Assembly: GCF_035285525.1 (NCBI RefSeq)
Contig: NZ_JAYKGW010000113.1
Coordinates: forward strand, 1 to 29,062
Length of the DNA: 29,062 bases
Origin: Okeania sp.
GTDB taxonomy: Bacteria > Cyanobacteriota > Cyanobacteriia > Cyanobacteriales > Microcoleaceae
Direction of reading: 5' to 3'
Below the pieces are notes generated by a model, which had not been told where the DNA came from, did not search any database, and was given only the letters and a program-made list of their open reading frames with translations. A program made the position numbers and the translations under genes. Positions 9,073-28,031 of this stretch are shown here, in pieces (positions within the stretch are counted from its first letter, which is position 1; every line of letters starts with the position of its first letter).

Positions 9073-9130
9073 TGAGTGATTGTTGGAGATATCTATTTGG
9101 TATGAGCGGTGCGTTACATTCATTAACGCA

Positions 9131-9385
9131 CCCTACAACATGGCTATGACAGCCTAGAAGGCTGTCTTACAAAAGAACGCACCCTACAACATGGCTATGA
9201 CAGCCTAGAAGGCTGTCTTACAGTTGTGTCAATTCACTACAACATGGCTATGACAGCCTAGAAGGCTGTGTTACAAAAGAACCTACCCTACAACATAGCT
9301 ATGATAGGCAAGATGTCTGTGTTACAAAAGAACCTACCCTACAACATGGCTATGACAGCCTAGAAGGCTGTGTTACAAAGGTTTG
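9131..9385. repeat. ~51-bp tandem repeat, 5 copies, each with a GACAGCC-TAGAA-GGCTGTC hairpin
   Basis: Unit starts (CCCTACAAC) lie at 9131, 9182, ~9235, 9286 and 9337. The fourth copy is the most diverged (ATAGCTATGATAGGCAAGATGTCTGT). Confidence 0.9.
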
Positions 9386-11613: not shown

Positions 11614-11619
11614 CAATTT

Positions 11620-11647
11620 CAGTGATCAGTTATCAGTTATCAGTTTT
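11620..11647. repeat. Heptamer tandem array (CAGTTAT-type)x4, STRR-like
   Basis: CAGTGAT CAGTTAT CAGTTAT CAGTTTT, beginning 7 nt upstream of the holB ATG. Confidence 0.9.
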
Positions 11648-12781: not shown

Positions 12782-13126
12782 CCATGATCTAAACAACAGT
12801 CTTTAGGGCGAGTTTATTATAATTAATAATTAATAATTACCTCTGGTTAAAACCGAGAGATAGTAAACAGGGAGCGGAAATCTGACTTCATTATTAATTA
12901 TTCATTAATTTCTCACCCGCCCCCATGATCTAAACAACAGTCTAACAGGGCAAGTTTATAATAATTAATAATTAATAATTAATTATTAATTATTAATTAT
13001 TACCTCTAGTTAAAACCGAGAGACCTATGCGCAAGAGGCAGAAATCTAATTTCATTATTAATTATTCATTAATTTCTAACCCGCACCCCATGATCTAAAC
13101 AACAGTCTAACGGGGCGAGTTTATGT
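12773..13126. repeat. Tandem repeat of 142/164-bp units (2 full copies plus a partial one) containing an internal heptamer tract of variable length
   Basis: Units start (ACCCGCCCCCATGATCTAAACAACAGTCT) at 12773, 12915 and 13079. The second unit has a longer AATTAAT/TAATTAT run. Confidence 0.85.
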
Positions 13127-15574: not shown

Positions 15575-16273
15575 TCAATAAGTATATTCGTATTCATAGT
15601 TATAAGAATCTTCAAAGTTAGTGCTGACTCTAACTCCATTATTATCAACAGTACACACAAATTTATTTCGTTCCCCATAAACATCTACCCATCCTCGCCA
15701 TTCCCAACCTTCTATAGTTTTCCTGACATCTTTTTGAGAAGACCACTTCCCATTTCTAGGAAATCCCATTTCATATTCCATAAATTCTTGACAAGAACTC
15801 ACAACACTACTGGTGTTAGTTGGATTTTTATATTGATATGAATTATCGGGAATAATATCGGGTTCATATTGAGATGAATCATCAGGAAAATGATAAGAAT
15901 ATGGTTCTGTATCGAAAGTATATGCTGTTACTTTATTGTTGTCTATATTGCAGACAAAATTGCTTTTTTCTCCATCAAATTCTACCCAACCTCCCCACTT
16001 CCAACCCAATTCTGTTTTTGTTATATCTGACTCCGATGACCACCGCCCATTCCTAGGAAATCCCATTTCATCTTCCATAAATTCTTGGCAAGAATTAACA
16101 ACATAATTGGTATTAATATTGCTTTGAACATCATTTTTTGTTCTCACTTTTTTAGGATTAACTTGACTTGGATAATTATAATCTTTCAGTTTAATATGAC
16201 TATTATTACCAACATCGCAAGCTGCTAGAAAAACAACTGTAAATAATGCTAGAGCTAGGTTTTTTTTGTTCAT
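15575..16273 (-). CDS. Hypothetical lipoprotein with two tandem ~99-aa modules
   Basis: Signal peptide plus lipobox (ALALFTVVFLAAC). The module SCQEFME-EMGFPRNG-WSS...GW-W-GWV...G-E--KFVC-(I/V)DNN occurs twice, 297 nt apart. Confidence 0.7.
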   Translation of the reverse strand: MNKKNLALALFTVVFLAACDVGNNSHIKLKDYNYPSQVNPKKVRTKNDVQSNINTNYVVNSCQEFMEDEMGFPRNGRWSSESDITKTELGWKWGGWVEFDGEKSNFVCNIDNNKVTAYTFDTEPYSYHFPDDSSQYEPDIIPDNSYQYKNPTNTSSVVSSCQEFMEYEMGFPRNGKWSSQKDVRKTIEGWEWRGWVDVYGERNKFVCTVDNNGVRVSTNFEDSYNYEYEYTY

Positions 16274-18721: not shown

Positions 18722-18980
18722 TGGGAAAATTATTGGGGAAAATTTGTTTGGTTTATACTATAGCAATCCTATTTTCTTTGTGTATAAAAATCTTACCGCT
18801 TTTAGGGAACGGGGAATAGGAAATAGGAAAAATACTTTTTTCCAAAATGGATGAACCACATTGCCATAAGCAAAATCTAGTAGGGAAGTTGCATAAGGGC
18901 GTCTCTACTGTGGTTTAGCGAAATGAAAACTGCTACAGGAAGACCAAGAGAAAAAAATCAAGGAACAATTATTCTTCTCA

Positions 18981-19097
18981 CACCTCCCACCCGGACCACA
19001 CCTCCCACCCGGACCACACGAACCACATCTTCCACACTCCCCACACCTCCCACCCGGACCACACGAACCACATCTTCCACACTCCCCACACTCCAGA
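18981..19097. repeat. C-rich 9-nt-periodic array (13 nonamers, consensus CAC-NNN-CCA) with higher-order structure A-A-B-A-B (A = 18 nt, B = 27 nt)
   Basis: A = CACCTCCCACCCGGACCA at 18981, 18999 and 19044. B = CACGAACCACATCTTCCACACTCCCCA at 19017 and 19062. By hand count 74 of 117 nt are G/C (about 65 C and 9 G on the plus strand). Confidence 0.9.
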
Positions 19098-19154
19098 TAG
19101 AGTTGCCCAAACTCAAAATCAATGGTAAAGTTTTGTAAAGAAAACTTAATTTAT

Positions 19155-20607: not shown

Positions 20608-21127
20608 CAATCCTGGATAGGTTGTTACCAATCAAAAAGTAGATAAAAAAAACTGAAACTTTTAACTTTTCTCTATTTCCTAAAAGGGATAATTTCTTGG
20701 CTTTATTCAAAATTGATATGTACATATCAATAGTACTTAAGCAAAGGTACCATATATAGAGTTTAAAACTATTGCGAGTTTTAAAGGCTTCAGACGCTTT
20801 CAAGCATTTTTTATGTTCTACTTTGTATAGAATTTAAGGGAATAAAAACTATAGATATTAGGGAACACTTAACTGGGAATAGGTATGGAGGAAAAAGTAT
20901 TTTTGCAAATGTGAAATGCACCCAAAATATAAGTTATAAAACTTCTCCTTTTCAGAATAAAAAAGAAATAATATTTCCCTATATTCAATCCTCTCAGTTT
21001 TAACCAGAGGTAATGATCAATTATCCATTAATGAACTAACAAAAAAAAATTATTAACAAAACTGAAAATTTAAAGCTATACTGTAAACTAAAAAATACTT
21101 TTAATACATTTACCCAAACCCCATGCC

Positions 21128-23254
21128 ATGCGGTTGCAACGTCAGTTCAGTGGACAAACTATTACCTTAGACACCCAAAACCAAATTGGTGGCGGTGGTG
21201 AAGGTCGTATCTATTCTATATTACAAGACCCATCTCTGGTGGCCAAAATCTACCATAAACCCACAGATGAAAATGCAGATAAGTTAACCATCATGTTTTC
21301 CCATCCACCCAATGCACCCACAGCAGGAGGACATTCGGCGATCGCATGGCCTGTAGACCTATTACGGACTATCAACCAGAAACAACAAATAGTCGGTTTT
21401 TTAATGCCCCGTGTTTACAGAGCGGAACCAATACATATATTTTATAATCCCAGAAACCGTCGGCAAAAAAAACCCCTTTTTAACTATCGTTATCTGCACC
21501 GCGCTGCTCGTAACTTAGTGGCAGCAGTTAACGCTTTACATAATAGTAAATATGTGATCGGTGATGTCAACGAATCAAATATTCTGGTAACAGATACCGC
21601 TCTTGTCACCCTAGTTGATACCGACTCATTTCAAGTCCAAGACCCCTATACCCAAGAATTTTACCGTTGTCCAGTGGGTAAACCAGAGTTCACACCCCCA
21701 GAATTACAAGGTCAGAGTTTCCGAGATATTGACCGCAAACCTGAACATGATTTATTTGGCATTGGAATATTAATATTTCAACTTTTGATGGAAGGAACTC
21801 ACCCTTTTGCTGGAGTTTACAAGGACAGAGGGGAGCCTCCTACCATAGAAACACGAATTAAATTAGGTCATTTTCCCTATGGAAAAAAGCAAGTTCCCTA
21901 TCGTCCGATGCCACTTGCACCAAATTGGAAAATTTTGCATCCGAGCATACGAGAATTATTAATTGAGTGTTTTGAAGTAGGTTACAAAAAACCAAGGTTG
22001 CGCCCAGATACCAGAACTTGGTTGCAGGTTTTACGAGAGTCTGAGAATAGTTTGGTGACTTGTCAAAGAAATAATCAACATTTGTATGGAAATCACTTAA
22101 AGTCTTGTCCGTGGTGCGAACGGACTAAATTATTGAAAGGGCGAGATCCTTTTCCTTCCAGGAGAGCAGTACAAAATAAGCAACATTTGGAACCTGGACT
22201 CAAGAAGCAGAAGTCGTTATCATTAGCAGCACAAAAAACTGCTCCCCCTAAAAAACCAGGACGACCGAAACCAATTATCATACCTCGGCAAATGGGGCAA
22301 TATCAACCTTTACTAACTCCTGTTTCTACCAAATTTAGATCGCCGTCATTACCAATAATTCCCTTGCCAGGGGGTGGTAACGGTTTTTCTGGTGTCGCCC
22401 AAGATGCTATTTGGGGTGGTCTGTGGGGAGTTTTGTGTGCAGCAGCAATATCAGGTTTGGTATTAGCTATCATCAAAGGTAGCGTTGCGACGATCGGTGG
22501 TGTAATTATGGGAATATTGTGGGGTGGTTTTTTAGCGCTCTCCTTTCAGTATGTGATCCCAACAAATTCATCTAATGTTAGTCTAGGTTTAACTGGGGCG
22601 ATGTGGGGAGGGTTTATTGCGGCTGCTATTAGTGGCATTGTTTATGGAGTCGGCAACCGCGATGGGGCATTTGGACAAGCATTGGTATTGGGTGGATTTT
22701 TAGGGATTATTTGGGGTGGTGTTTGGAGTGCTTTTAAACCACCTTTGGCGCTGCCTGTTCCGGGGCGAGTTTGGGGAGGACGAGGTTTATTTTTAGGGTC
22801 AATTTGGGGTGCTTTTTTAGGTGCAGTTATTGGGGCAATTTTATCAGGAGTTTTTGTGTTTCAGGAAAGTCTAAATCAGAGTAATAATTCGGCGATATTG
22901 TTATCTATGTTGATGAGTAGTATGATTCCGGCAATGGGTATAGGTGGAATGGGAGGAATGATGGGAGGTTTTGTTTTTGGACCTATTTTAGGTGTACCTA
23001 CTTTGCCTTTATCGAATAAATTATCTGGATTTAGAGGTGGTGTATTGGGTGGAATTTGGGGTTGTTTTTTAGGAGTAATTATTGGGGTAATTTTGGGTGG
23101 TATTTTATCACAAATTCCGTTGATAGATTTAGTGGGAATTGTCGGAATCAATGCAAGTATAACATCAATTATTTCGACAATTTTTGGAGCTGGTTTAGGT
23201 GCTATTGGTGGTTGTTTTTCCGGAGCTGCTTGGGGAGCTATGGGGAAATGGTAA
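21128..23254 (+). CDS. Hanks-type Ser/Thr kinase-like domain fused to a Zn-ribbon-like motif, a Pro/Lys-rich linker and a glycine-zipper/WGG-repeat polytopic membrane region
   Basis: Kinase features: G-loop GGGGEGRIY, VAKIY lysine, catalytic-loop-like IGDVNESNILV, DTDS (DFG-like), FTPPE (APE-like) and DLFGIGILIFQLL. The C-x5-H-x10-C-x2-C motif spans residues 312-330. Residues ~416-708 are Gly-rich and hydrophobic with 8 W-G-G/A/C motifs. Confidence 0.7.
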   Translation: MRLQRQFSGQTITLDTQNQIGGGGEGRIYSILQDPSLVAKIYHKPTDENADKLTIMFSHPPNAPTAGGHSAIAWPVDLLRTINQKQQIVGFLMPRVYRAEPIHIFYNPRNRRQKKPLFNYRYLHRAARNLVAAVNALHNSKYVIGDVNESNILVTDTALVTLVDTDSFQVQDPYTQEFYRCPVGKPEFTPPELQGQSFRDIDRKPEHDLFGIGILIFQLLMEGTHPFAGVYKDRGEPPTIETRIKLGHFPYGKKQVPYRPMPLAPNWKILHPSIRELLIECFEVGYKKPRLRPDTRTWLQVLRESENSLVTCQRNNQHLYGNHLKSCPWCERTKLLKGRDPFPSRRAVQNKQHLEPGLKKQKSLSLAAQKTAPPKKPGRPKPIIIPRQMGQYQPLLTPVSTKFRSPSLPIIPLPGGGNGFSGVAQDAIWGGLWGVLCAAAISGLVLAIIKGSVATIGGVIMGILWGGFLALSFQYVIPTNSSNVSLGLTGAMWGGFIAAAISGIVYGVGNRDGAFGQALVLGGFLGIIWGGVWSAFKPPLALPVPGRVWGGRGLFLGSIWGAFLGAVIGAILSGVFVFQESLNQSNNSAILLSMLMSSMIPAMGIGGMGGMMGGFVFGPILGVPTLPLSNKLSGFRGGVLGGIWGCFLGVIIGVILGGILSQIPLIDLVGIVGINASITSIISTIFGAGLGAIGGCFSGAAWGAMGKW

Positions 23255-23256
23255 TT

Positions 23257-23284
23257 TCAGTTATCACTTATCAGTTATCAGTAT
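23257..23284. repeat. Heptamer tandem array (TCAGTTA-type)x4, STRR-like
   Basis: TCAGTTA TCACTTA TCAGTTA TCAGTAT, starting 3 nt after the kinase-fusion stop codon. Confidence 0.9.
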
Positions 23285-23505
23285 GAAGTCAGAGCCTTTG
23301 TACCTTAATTTTTCGGTAAATATTGAGTTATATTTGAACTTCTCTAATTATGCACAACTACTTAAAATTATTGTCTATTATAATATAAAAAAATGGCTTT
23401 AGTTGTCTAGCTGCAACGGCCACCTTATTTTTATCTCAACTTTAAAATAGACATTAATATCTGTTTTGTAACAAATATATAACTTATAGGATTTTTCATA
23501 AAGAT

Positions 23506-23992
23506 GAGGTACGTTTACGATCCCCCTAAATCCCCCTTTCCCTTGTCTACCCCCCCCTTAAAAAGCTATGCTTTATAAACATCTTTCTTAACATAAAACT
23601 TGGGCATTATTGAGAAGTTATATGTAATACTAATTCCCAAAAGTATTGCCCAAGTATAGCAATACTTCAGTTATTAACTAATCAGTATAAGCAAAATTAC
23701 TTTTTTGCTGATTTTAGCTAAGTTAATGTTAATTATTCTTATGTTTGCTTCTCCCTTACTCCCCTGCTCAACAAAATGTAGAAAACTTTTTGAAAAATGG
23801 TATAAGTCTTGGTTCGGCTTTTTTGGAAAAAAAATGTATTTTTTCATACATTTTTCTGGGATTATTTAAGTATTTTTACTTGGCTAGCATGATTGTTTCT
23901 CCCGGCTCCCCTCCTCCCCAGAAGGGTTTTAGGAGTTTCTGATCAGAGATAGCTAAAAAAAGGGGGGGTGGTGGGGTCTAAAACTGTACCTC
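23506..23992. repeat. ~487-bp segment bounded by imperfect inverted repeats rich in C/G homopolymer runs (possible non-autonomous element or structured leader)
   Basis: The left arm is GAGGTACGTTTACGATCCCCC...ACCCCCCCCTTAAAAAGCT (23506-23567). The right arm is AGCTAAAAAAAGGGGGGGTGGTGGGGTCTAAAACTGTACCTC (23951-23992). Confidence 0.45.
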
Positions 23993-24044
23993 ACAGAGAA
24001 CGAGAACTGCTATATCTATTTTATCAAGATTTTTCGGAAAAAGA

Positions 24045-26549: not shown

Positions 26550-26964
26550 GGTTTGCTGAAGGTAGGCAATGGGCAATATTTATAGCCGTTAATTGTTCTA
26601 AATTTTTCCAAGTTTTGTGAGAAAAAATCCAGAGTTTTTAAGGTTAATTTAGTAGTTTTTTGACACTTTTTATAACTAGAAAAATCCTTTAAGATTTGTA
26701 TATTAATACTTTGATATTTAATCAGCAAGCCCTAATTAATAATTGATAATTTCTACAATTAATTCTGGTTAAAAATGAAAGAATTGAATAGAAGGAAATA
26801 TTCTTTTTGTATTAGGCTTTATACCTTTATTTTTATGTAAAATTTATTGATAAAGTTAGTAACTATTTTCTGCGGAATGCTGCGCCAATAGCTTTTTAGT
26901 GAATGAAGTAACTATTATTTGGTATTAAATCACAATAACAGCGAGCTTGCTCTAAAAGTAATAA

Positions 26965-27819: not shown

Positions 27820-27861
27820 ATAATTGATAATTGATAATGGATAATGGATAATTGATAATGA
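27820..27861. repeat. Heptamer tandem array (ATAATTG/ATAATGG)x6, STRR-like
   Basis: Units at 27820, 27827, 27834, 27841, 27848 and 27855. The array starts 4 nt upstream of the nagB-like ATG. Confidence 0.9.
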
Positions 27862-28031
27862 AAACTATAGCAATCGTAAATAGATAGTGAGATTTTATGG
27901 TAGGGGTTTGGTTGCCAAATCCCTTTGGGTTTTGGTTTGGATAATTGATAATGAAAACTATAGCAATCGTAAATAGATAGTGAGATTTTATGGTAGGGGT
28001 TTGGTTGCCAAATCCCTTTGGGTTTTGGTTT
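27848..28031. repeat. 93-bp tandem duplication (2 copies)
   Basis: ATAATTGATAATGAAAACTATAGCAATCGTAAATAGATAGTGAGATTTTATGGTAGGGGTTTGGTTGCCAAATCCCTTTGGGTTTTGGTTTGG occurs at 27848 and again at 27941. Confidence 0.9.

Follow-up and report, generated by a model that had tools for sequence, protein, structure and literature searches.

The window analysed here is a stretch of 29,062 nucleotides (nt) from the cyanobacterium Okeania sp. (Oscillatoriales, Microcoleaceae), comprising positions 1 to 29,062 of contig NZ_JAYKGW010000113.1 (assembly GCF_035285525.1). On its forward strand an open reading frame (ORF) at 21128..23254, beginning with ATG and ending with a stop codon at 23252-23254, encodes a protein of 708 amino acids. 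In this protein a serine/threonine kinase module of the type known from Escherichia coli YegI is fused, through a zinc-knuckle-like element and a tether, to a membrane domain of eight predicted helices that is rich in glycine and tryptophan. The features of the gene are given below with the evidence for each, all on the + strand.

21043..21126 (+): conserved 5' region with a promoter-like site, TTAACA at 21053-21058, an 18-nt spacer, and TATACT at 21077-21082
21128..23254 (+): whole gene, 708-amino-acid YegI-type Ser/Thr kinase fused to an eight-helix membrane domain (ORF and homology)
21128..22048 (+): protein kinase domain, residues 1-307 (Pfam, AlphaFold, Foldseek, and similarity to YegI)
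22049..22135 (+): zinc-knuckle or treble-clef-like element, residues 308-336 (conservation and AlphaFold)
22136..22198 (+): conserved post-ribbon segment, residues 337-357 (conservation)
22199..22363 (+): disordered Pro/Lys/Gln-rich tether, residues 358-412 (predicted local distance difference test score, pLDDT, below 50 in AlphaFold)
22364..23251 (+): Gly/Trp-rich membrane domain with a conserved WG..GKW C-terminus, residues 413-708 (AlphaFold, hydropathy, and charge)
22385..22555 (+): hairpin 1, helices 1-2, residues 420-476 (hhalign)
22574..22735 (+): hairpin 2, helices 3-4, residues 483-536 (hhalign)
22736..22777 (+): central basic cytoplasmic loop, K-P-P-L-x-L-P-x-x-G-R-V-W-G, residues 537-550 (conservation)
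22778..22990 (+): hairpin 3, helices 5-6, residues 551-621 (hhalign and DNA repeat)
23030..23239 (+): hairpin 4, helices 7-8, residues 635-704 (hhalign and DNA repeat)

The protein is identical to an Okeania sp. database entry (P0001) that carries the names "DNA-binding protein" and "protein kinase domain-containing protein". Full-length orthologues are 50-82% identical to it at 100% coverage, and 63 of them, all fusions of kinase and membrane domain, made up the alignment used for conservation and as AlphaFold input. A sequence-only reading of the window had picked out a series of kinase landmarks, a cysteine/histidine motif, and a set of W-G motifs in this ORF, and every one of them lies where it had been noted: GGGGEGRIY at residues 21-29, VAKIY at 38-42, IGDVNESNILV at 144-154, DTDS at 164-167, FTPPE at 188-192, DLFGIG at 208-213, C312-x5-H318-x8-C327-x2-C330, and eight W-G-[GAC] motifs at residues 429, 465, 493, 529, 549, 560, 644, and 702. 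The motif positions are invariant or almost so across the orthologue alignment. Residues 426-708 are 22% glycine, with 12 charged residues in 283. When residues 416-708 were shuffled 10,000 times, W-G-[GAC] occurred 0.81 times on average against 8 observed, and GxxxGxxxG 3.15 times against 16 observed, an enrichment of about five-fold; the observed counts were reached in none of the shuffles. The observation is real and the description of the motifs is correct.

The kinase module contains a P-loop at G21-G26, a lysine at K40, D51 in helix alphaC, a catalytic loop I144-G-D146-x4-N151, and a metal-binding loop D164-T-D-S167. Pfam model PF00069 (Pkinase) scores 37.5 bits with the whole protein and 39.9 bits with residues 1-334, against a gathering cut-off of 31.7 bits, and Foldseek comparisons with solved kinases (CDPK, FGFR2, PLK1, PknA, and others) return a probability of 1.0 with target-normalised template-modelling scores (TM-scores) of 0.65-0.70. 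These results bear out the kinase fold that had been proposed for the N-terminal part. AlphaFold pLDDT is mostly 80-95 over residues 1-350. The best sequence match in the PDB is PpkA (E 0.0011), while NCBIfam gave nothing but kinase-containing models far below threshold, for example LanL and LanKC. K40, D146, N151, T157, D164, and S167 are invariant in the 63 orthologues, and T165 is conserved in at least 90% of them. The HRD and DFG triplets are not present, as had been remarked from the sequence, and I-G-D and D-T-D stand in their place.

The same departures from the canonical kinase motifs are found in YegI (b2070), the founding member of the COG4248-type "protein kinase + helix-hairpin-helix" proteins. 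With the YegI sequence taken from the E. coli K-12 genome, 116 of 334 positions are identical (35%, E 3e-50) over residues 8-330 of the Okeania protein, and the alignment ends at C330. The catalytic loop reads IGDVNESN in the Okeania protein and VGDVNQNS in YegI, the metal-binding loop DTDS and DSDS, respectively, and the C-x5-H-x8-C-x2-C motif C-QRNNQ-H-LYGNHLKS-C-PW-C and C-IVSAM-H-VYPAHLTD-C-PW-C. T157, T165, and S167 align with S153, S160, and S162 of YegI, which are the autophosphorylation sites of that kinase; mutation of each lowers its activity, and mutation of S162 abolishes it (10.1101/819920). YegI is an active, Mn2+-preferring Ser/Thr kinase although it is without HRD and DFG, its kinetics are second order, consistent with dimer formation, and it is a two-pass inner-membrane protein with both termini inside and no sensor domain (10.1101/819920). 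The sequence-only reading had named no described function for this architecture; its N-terminal half is no orphan, since this half belongs to a known and biochemically characterised family with experimentally shown activity, autophosphorylation sites, and topology. Because E. coli YegI departs likewise from HRD and DFG and yet is active, these departures are no argument for inactivity. The invariance of the catalytic residues, together with the activity of YegI with its similar loops, suggests that the Okeania kinase is probably catalytically competent.

YegI has been shown to be tethered to the membrane by an even number of helices, so that both its ends stay in the cytoplasm, and the same is predicted for the Okeania protein. 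The two differ in what follows the kinase. In YegI a pair of membrane helices leads to a coiled region and a helix-hairpin-helix, whereas the Okeania protein has eight predicted helices with nothing beyond them, preceded by an additional GRDPFPS segment, which is invariant, and by about 55 residues of disordered tether. YegI has a serine at the catalytic-loop asparagine position, whereas the Okeania protein retains N151. Pfam finds no helix-hairpin-helix match in the Okeania protein, which terminates inside its membrane domain. The names "DNA-binding" and "helix-hairpin-helix domain-containing" are thus a misannotation of this protein, and these COG-derived names have come to it because the YegI tail carries a helix-hairpin-helix motif.

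The Zn-ribbon-like motif noted in the sequence-only reading proved to be a family-wide invariant, present also in E. coli YegI. C312, H318, C327, and C330 are unchanged in the 63 orthologues and in 10 relatives with other C-terminal architectures, and AlphaFold places two short strands (309-311 and 319-321) and a helix starting from 328 at the CPWC sequence here, with pLDDT of at least 90. Metal binding by this motif is plausible. The segment that follows lies outside the YegI alignment, which stops at C330. Within it, G338-R-D-P-F-P-S344 is invariant both in the orthologues and in paralogues with TPR, WD40, FGE-sulfatase, or other tails. The earlier description of residues 332-415 as a linker therefore applies to residues 358-412, which are predicted to be disordered, but not to residues 331-357, which are structured and highly conserved. 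The tether is weakly conserved in sequence and varies in length between orthologues, and residues 346-425 are 16% proline and 11% lysine.

Kinase, CHCC motif, and GRDPFPS segment form a single module that recurs at 56-63% identity in other cyanobacterial and bacterial proteins, joined there to TPR, WD40, FGE-sulfatase, or other multi-pass tails. In the paralogous cyanobacterial YegI-like kinases the same module is followed, as in the Okeania protein, by a Pro-rich linker and one or more hydrophobic segments, but their tails are other domains. A crude hydropathy scan found the hydrophobic segment or segments soon after the module in 48 of 50 relatives. The part beyond the tether is an exchangeable module on a membrane-tethered kinase, an arrangement usual among bacterial Ser/Thr kinases of the receptor type. 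PknB of Mycobacterium tuberculosis, PrkC of Bacillus subtilis, and PpkA of Pseudomonas aeruginosa likewise consist of a cytoplasmic N-terminal kinase, a linker, and a membrane part. Theirs, however, is one membrane helix with a folded extracytoplasmic sensor (PASTA and others), whereas the Okeania protein is without an extracytoplasmic domain and has HRD and DFG replaced. For receptor-type Hanks kinases, dimerisation with autophosphorylation of the activation loop is the established activation model (10.1101/819920).

The Gly/Trp-rich region is predicted to consist of membrane-embedded helices, being neither soluble nor disordered according to AlphaFold, hydropathy, and charge, in line with the membrane character first proposed for it. 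AlphaFold places eight helices at residues 420-450, 453-476, 483-509, 513-536, 551-583, 588-621, 635-660, and 676-704, and the model of the domain by itself has a pLDDT of 81.8 and a predicted TM-score (pTM) of 0.63. Hydropathy supports membrane segments in the region. Comparison of sub-alignments with hhalign matched hairpin 1 with hairpin 2 (probability 96.7%, E 3.8e-10), hairpin 3 with hairpin 4 (98.9%, E 2e-17), and hairpin 2 with hairpin 4 (89.6%), probabilities that may be inflated somewhat by compositional bias. A trace of the repeat is visible in the DNA itself, where 22782-22842 and 23034-23094 are 75% identical. That the membrane domain consists of four tandem copies of a two-helix Gly/Trp-rich hairpin is well supported.

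Charge and invariance within the domain were assessed with an alignment of 14 family members, stand-alone forms included. The mean number of lysines plus arginines is 0.8 in the N-terminal stub, 1.4 in loop 2-3, 3.4 in loop 4-5, 1.8 in loop 6-7, and 0.9 at the C-terminus, as compared with 0.5-0.7 in the outer loops 1-2, 3-4, 5-6, and 7-8. The outer turns are 2-4 residues long in 3 of the 4 hairpins, and hardly any part of the domain is predicted to protrude on the outer side; the loops on the opposite face are longer and basic. By the positive-inside rule this pattern fits a predicted eight-helix topology with both termini in the cytoplasm, as a cytoplasmic kinase requires, and the predicted helix boundaries would put the conserved tryptophans all in the cytoplasmic half of the helices. 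Residues invariant throughout the family are glycines, tryptophans, prolines, one serine, one lysine, and one phenylalanine. Those inside the helices are glycines, tryptophans, and the serine, none of them charged; the sole invariant lysine, K537, belongs to the central loop, and the helices thus contain no charged residue that is conserved. K537, P538, and P539 of this loop are invariant in the 14 sequences; in the 63 fused orthologues P539 never varies, and P538 is kept in at least 90%.

Searches for relatives of the domain in existing collections gave little. Pfam returned 0 matches for residues 416-708 or the linker at E<=10, a scan in which the HMMER filters discard most matches above about 0.1. 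The domain model compared with the PDB by Foldseek gave a best E value of 0.69 and a TM-score of about 0.2; matches to major-facilitator transporters (E about 1, TM-score about 0.2) were considered and rejected as noise. Among viral predicted structures (Foldseek against BFVD) the best E value was 0.49 and none was significant, and neither the 50,697 phage records nor the 72,556 plasmid records searched contain the domain. An exhaustive phmmer search of 1.84 billion cluster representatives found nine relatives, and this is the reliable search of those made: a single-sequence word search missed the fused orthologues, and a profile search of 5.8 billion proteins was uninformative, returning 6 close relatives after its prefilter had been saturated by low-complexity words. 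In the literature on YegI/COG4248-type and glycine-zipper kinases we found no account of such an architecture. The glycine-zipper families (Pfam Gly-zipper, and the GlsB/YeaQ/YmgE "transglycosylase-associated" proteins) also form helical hairpins rich in GxxxG and GxxxGxxxG, but the present domain has no Pfam match to them, and its four-hairpin repeat, its W-G motifs, and its K-P-P-L / GR-WG loop are specific to it. Oligomerising Gly-rich hairpins are also known from ATP-synthase subunit c and Mic10, which serve here as analogies only. The view that the membrane domain is an undescribed, lineage-restricted family without a Pfam entry or structural relative is well supported.

Apart from this domain, tails of 9-14 predicted helices with a repeat W-R-x-V-K-x-L-A-G-R-G-R-W ... 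A-A-L-G-M-G-T-A occur in other YegI-like kinases (P0075, P0087, P0104, P0119, and P0120). These "GRGRW" tails are possibly a second undescribed hairpin-repeat membrane domain. The tail of P0119 was considered as a distant version of the domain described above and was rejected, the hhalign probability being 0.1%.

The distribution of the domain was scanned in one genome per GTDB species, which gave 123 loci, 80 of which were analysed. Almost all of the 80 are from filamentous cyanobacteria of the Oscillatoriales type, mostly Microcoleaceae (Okeania, Dapis, Trichodesmium, Microcoleus, Tychonema, Planktothrix, Lyngbya, Limnoraphis, and Capilliphycus), and a few are metagenome bins labelled otherwise or vaguely, one Richelia and one Candidatus Obscuribacterales among them. 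The domain is fused in frame to the kinase and CHCC module at 75 loci, cut by a contig end at 2 (L015 and L058), interrupted at 1 (L072), and encoded by a stand-alone gene at 2 (L073 and L087). The interrupted orthologue, from Planktothrix sp. GU0601_MAG3 (L072, 5272-6903), is broken within the kinase domain and leaves a 544-codon frame that keeps the CHCC motif and has no catalytic loop; it is either a pseudogene or a sequencing error in a metagenome-assembled genome. Each genome record among the 80 loci holds one fused copy, and identity roughly tracks relatedness, so that the fused gene looks vertically inherited.

Alongside the fused form, Okeania, Trichodesmium, Hydrocoleum, and Dapis have a stand-alone paralogue of 290-300 amino acids, which aligns with the membrane domain end to end over all eight helices at 32-38% identity. 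Its gene is flanked on its two sides, in a conserved arrangement, by a NUDIX gene and an ABC permease gene. The possibility that it represents a split kinase gene was considered and ruled out, no kinase adjoining it. Since the stand-alone paralogue exists with its own conserved context, the membrane domain is autonomous.

YegI is encoded in E. coli with a VWA protein and a PP2C phosphatase, and the gene order VWA, PP2C, kinase is found in E. coli (yegL-pphC-yegI) and on plasmids of Pseudomonas fulva and Granulicella. The sequence-only reading had stated that no partner genes are evident, which is true of the window but not beyond it. In the Microcoleus/Tychonema clade the orthologue lies 3.5-5 kilobases (kb) downstream, on the same strand, of VWA and PP2C genes, and the partners in the Microcoleus clade are 54% identical to YegL (VWA) and 37% identical to PphC (PP2C). 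Since VWA and PP2C genes lie upstream of it in this clade, the fused kinase is the cyanobacterial counterpart of YegI in a VWA/PP2C/kinase circuit. A PP2C-kinase-FGE-sulfatase fusion also exists (P0110). On a Microcoleus-like contig (L001, 4953-12112; also L033, L042, and L060) the same-strand row runs VWA, PP2C, a UPF0259 membrane protein, a 231-amino-acid protein, an RNase III-domain protein, and the kinase, and the three genes between PP2C and kinase may belong to the circuit. E. coli yegI is in addition flanked by yegD, which encodes an HSP70-family protein (L009, 3675-5027), and HSP70-only proteins have been described in a GAP1-N2 theme neighbouring a third theme of kinase, zinc-ribbon, PP2C, and VWA sets (PMC7159879).

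How might a kinase of this type be governed by a domain that lies wholly within the membrane? The account to which we give slightly better than an even chance is that this is an active YegI-type kinase in which the eight-helix domain acts within the bilayer as a module for input and self-association, its state controlling autophosphorylation in trans. The membrane domain would serve both to localise the kinase and to provide its input, with helices packed through their GxxxG faces both inside one protomer and between protomers. Self-association would be altered when something changes in the bilayer or a membrane partner binds, upon which the tethered kinase domains would phosphorylate one another on the activation segment (T157, T165, and S167) and the activated kinase would go on to phosphorylate cytoplasmic substrates. 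A PphC-like PP2C phosphatase encoded elsewhere would probably reset the kinase, and a YegL-like VWA protein probably takes part in the same circuit, as in E. coli and the Microcoleus-clade orthologues. Several points weigh against this account. The model of the full-length protein has a pTM of 0.51, and its inter-domain arrangement is not confident; the topology comes from prediction and the positive-inside rule alone; and the proposed activation is carried over by analogy from YegI and PknB-type kinases. The window has no VWA or PP2C gene in the 21 kb before the kinase gene or in the 6 kb after it, and the Okeania, Trichodesmium, and Dapis loci have none within 6 kb. The stand-alone paralogue, finally, shows that the domain works without a kinase, so that it may act in its own right, for instance in transport, in forming pores, or in shaping membranes, and not solely as a sensor.

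One challenge to an active kinase is that the canonical HRD and DFG triplets are absent, as they would be in a pseudokinase that has lost catalysis and serves for binding alone. We consider this exceedingly improbable, because E. coli YegI, with VGD and DSD, is active with the same substitutions and conversion of its DSD to DFG abolishes activity (10.1101/819920), and because the lysine, the catalytic aspartate, the asparagine that has no counterpart in YegI, and the metal-binding aspartate are all invariant in the orthologues. A different relation between the two halves is conceivable, in which the kinase is the switch and the eight-helix domain the effector, forming or opening a channel or pore or otherwise perturbing the membrane, for example upon phosphorylation of its cytoplasmic loops or of the tether. 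The enrichment of GxxxGxxxG would agree with this, as such motifs are found in several channel-forming segments; the four repeated hairpins could form the lining of a central cavity, and the existence of the domain as a conserved stand-alone protein implies an autonomous activity. Yet the helices offer no conserved charged residue to line an aqueous path, there is no similarity to a solved channel, transporter, or holin in the PDB or viral comparisons given above, the segment after the kinase is elsewhere in the family an exchangeable tail, and the gene is stably inherited, single-copy, and chromosomal. We regard an effector role as unlikely, though it deserves to be kept in mind. A sensor, anchor, or oligomerisation module fits better with the modular family, the lack of conserved polar residues in the helices, the absence from phages and plasmids, and the vertical inheritance.

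One of those roles is that of a passive anchor or scaffold, in which the domain, carrying no signal, would only place the kinase in the plasma or thylakoid membrane or beside a complex, perhaps by pairing with the stand-alone paralogue, and leave regulation to VWA and PP2C proteins or to expression level. YegI makes do with a two-helix anchor and no sensor domain, nearly all relatives are membrane-tethered whichever tail they carry, and the tether is long and disordered, all of which would suit such a role. One or two helices would suffice for anchoring, however, and yet 296 residues, about 27 invariant Gly, Trp, Pro, and Ser positions, and a conserved C-terminus have been kept, with conservation extending to stand-alone forms at just 32-38% identity. 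Pairing with the stand-alone paralogue cannot be general, since the paralogue is confined to the Okeania, Trichodesmium, Dapis, and Hydrocoleum group. Passive anchoring therefore appears rather unlikely to us. A role in anti-phage defence or conflict, with the kinase sensing infection and the membrane domain killing the cell by abortive infection, is suggested by weak PADLOC matches to mad6, MkoA, PD-T4-6, and PglW (E 2e-6 and weaker), by the occurrence of YegI-like modules on plasmids, and by the description of kinase, zinc-ribbon, PP2C, and VWA sets in predicted conflict systems of multicellular bacteria (PMC7159879). The PADLOC matches are confined to the generic kinase core, for which reason we reject assignment to a defence system. 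Defence genes are usually patchy in distribution, whereas this gene is present as one fused copy per genome record with identity roughly following relatedness, it sits among housekeeping genes, and its membrane domain is absent from phage and plasmid records. We consider a defence function very improbable.

A bolder form of the input-module and effector ideas would see in the four-hairpin Gly/Trp domain a device of a new class, embedded in the bilayer and peculiar to filamentous cyanobacteria of the Microcoleaceae type, either an intramembrane sensor gating a YegI-type kinase or a kinase-gated membrane-opening module. As a sensor, it could report the state of the membrane, such as tension, curvature, lipid packing, or thylakoid status. 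As a membrane-opening module, it could bring about the controlled death of single trichome cells, as in necridium formation or programmed cell death of the Trichodesmium type, and the stand-alone paralogue would then be an ungated or partner form. A device of this kind is a long shot.

What is new here is the lineage-restricted membrane domain, while the YegI-type kinase half is already known. Kinases of the YegI type, accompanied by their VWA and PP2C partners, have a wide distribution that extends from E. coli to the Acidobacteria and the cyanobacteria, and for none of them is the signal or the substrate known. Replacement of the YegI tail by a purely intramembrane domain narrows the possible inputs to events inside the membrane, which makes the variant a useful entry point to the function of the YegI family and a handle on its input. 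It is found, as one fused copy per genome record, across an ecologically important lineage that includes Trichodesmium, Okeania, Microcoleus, Planktothrix, Arthrospira, and Lyngbya. The analysis also defines a membrane-protein domain family that has no Pfam entry or structural relative and corrects the propagated misannotation "DNA-binding protein".

As had been suggested, the gene looks monocistronic: a conserved promoter-like region precedes it, and the window contains no partner genes. The 85 nt before the start codon are 77-89% identical upstream of orthologues in Okeania, Dapis, and Trichodesmium. The TTAACA-18-TATACT site in this region, a putative promoter, matches a sigma-70-type consensus, and such sites are no more numerous here in total than chance would give; the conserved 5' region with its promoter-like site speaks for independent transcription of the gene. 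The 5' region shows no conserved RNA structure (4 predicted pairs, no covariation), Rfam gave no match anywhere in the window, and no terminator-like site was found 3' of the gene. At 21118-21130 the window reads CCCATGCCATGCGG, as against CCCATGCGG in eight orthologous loci, the difference being a 5-nt CCATG duplication preceding the start codon. With the duplication comes an out-of-frame ATG at 21123, which opens a 15-codon ORF that runs across the true start at 21128. Translation of the kinase may be reduced by it in this strain; alternatively, the extra bases may be an error of the assembly.

Genes upstream of the kinase in the window encode RecO, an MFS transporter, adenosine deaminase, a Dcm methylase, PurA, a PfkB kinase, HolB, a GST, a GHL10 hydrolase, a solute-binding protein, and a MATE exporter, and those downstream a Cache/GAF histidine kinase, a 6-phosphogluconolactonase-like protein, and a hydrolase. 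The surroundings are ordinary chromosome with housekeeping genes. Across 20 loci from different genera no neighbour is conserved between genera, and synteny is kept only within clades. An ORF of 232 amino acids at 15575-16273 (-) has no Pfam match at E<=0.001.

The flanks of the gene had been called repeat-rich, a description that did not stand: Tandem Repeats Finder finds nothing in 20608-21127 or 23255-24044, where there are only weak AT-rich repeat pairs. The flanks do hold copies of two short dispersed repeats that occur also elsewhere in the window and in related genomes. One is an element of about 70 nt with the core TTTTAACCAGAGGTAAT, present at 20958-21030, 26740-26814 (-), and 12820-12873 (-) and, in loci of related Okeania and Dapis, at non-homologous sites; it is probably a small repeat scattered over the genome, with no special tie to the gene. 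The other is a heptamer run, (TTATCAG)n, which lies at 23255-23282 directly 3' of the stop codon and again at 11617-11644 beside another gene, and is found also 3' of the orthologous gene in L012, L017, and L021. Heptamer arrays, for example of TAATTAT or ATAATTA, occur in many other intergenic regions of the window. Between the solute-binding-protein and MATE genes, 18973-19091 is a perfect 45-nt tandem repeat of 2.1 copies with nested 18-nt units, which produces a spurious Thr/Pro/Arg-rich ORF at 18923-19138. Further large, near-perfect intergenic tandem repeats are located at 1-172, 2461-2619, 9130-9379, and 27845-28031, with periods of 42, 80, 51/104, and 93 nt, respectively, and matches of 83-100%.

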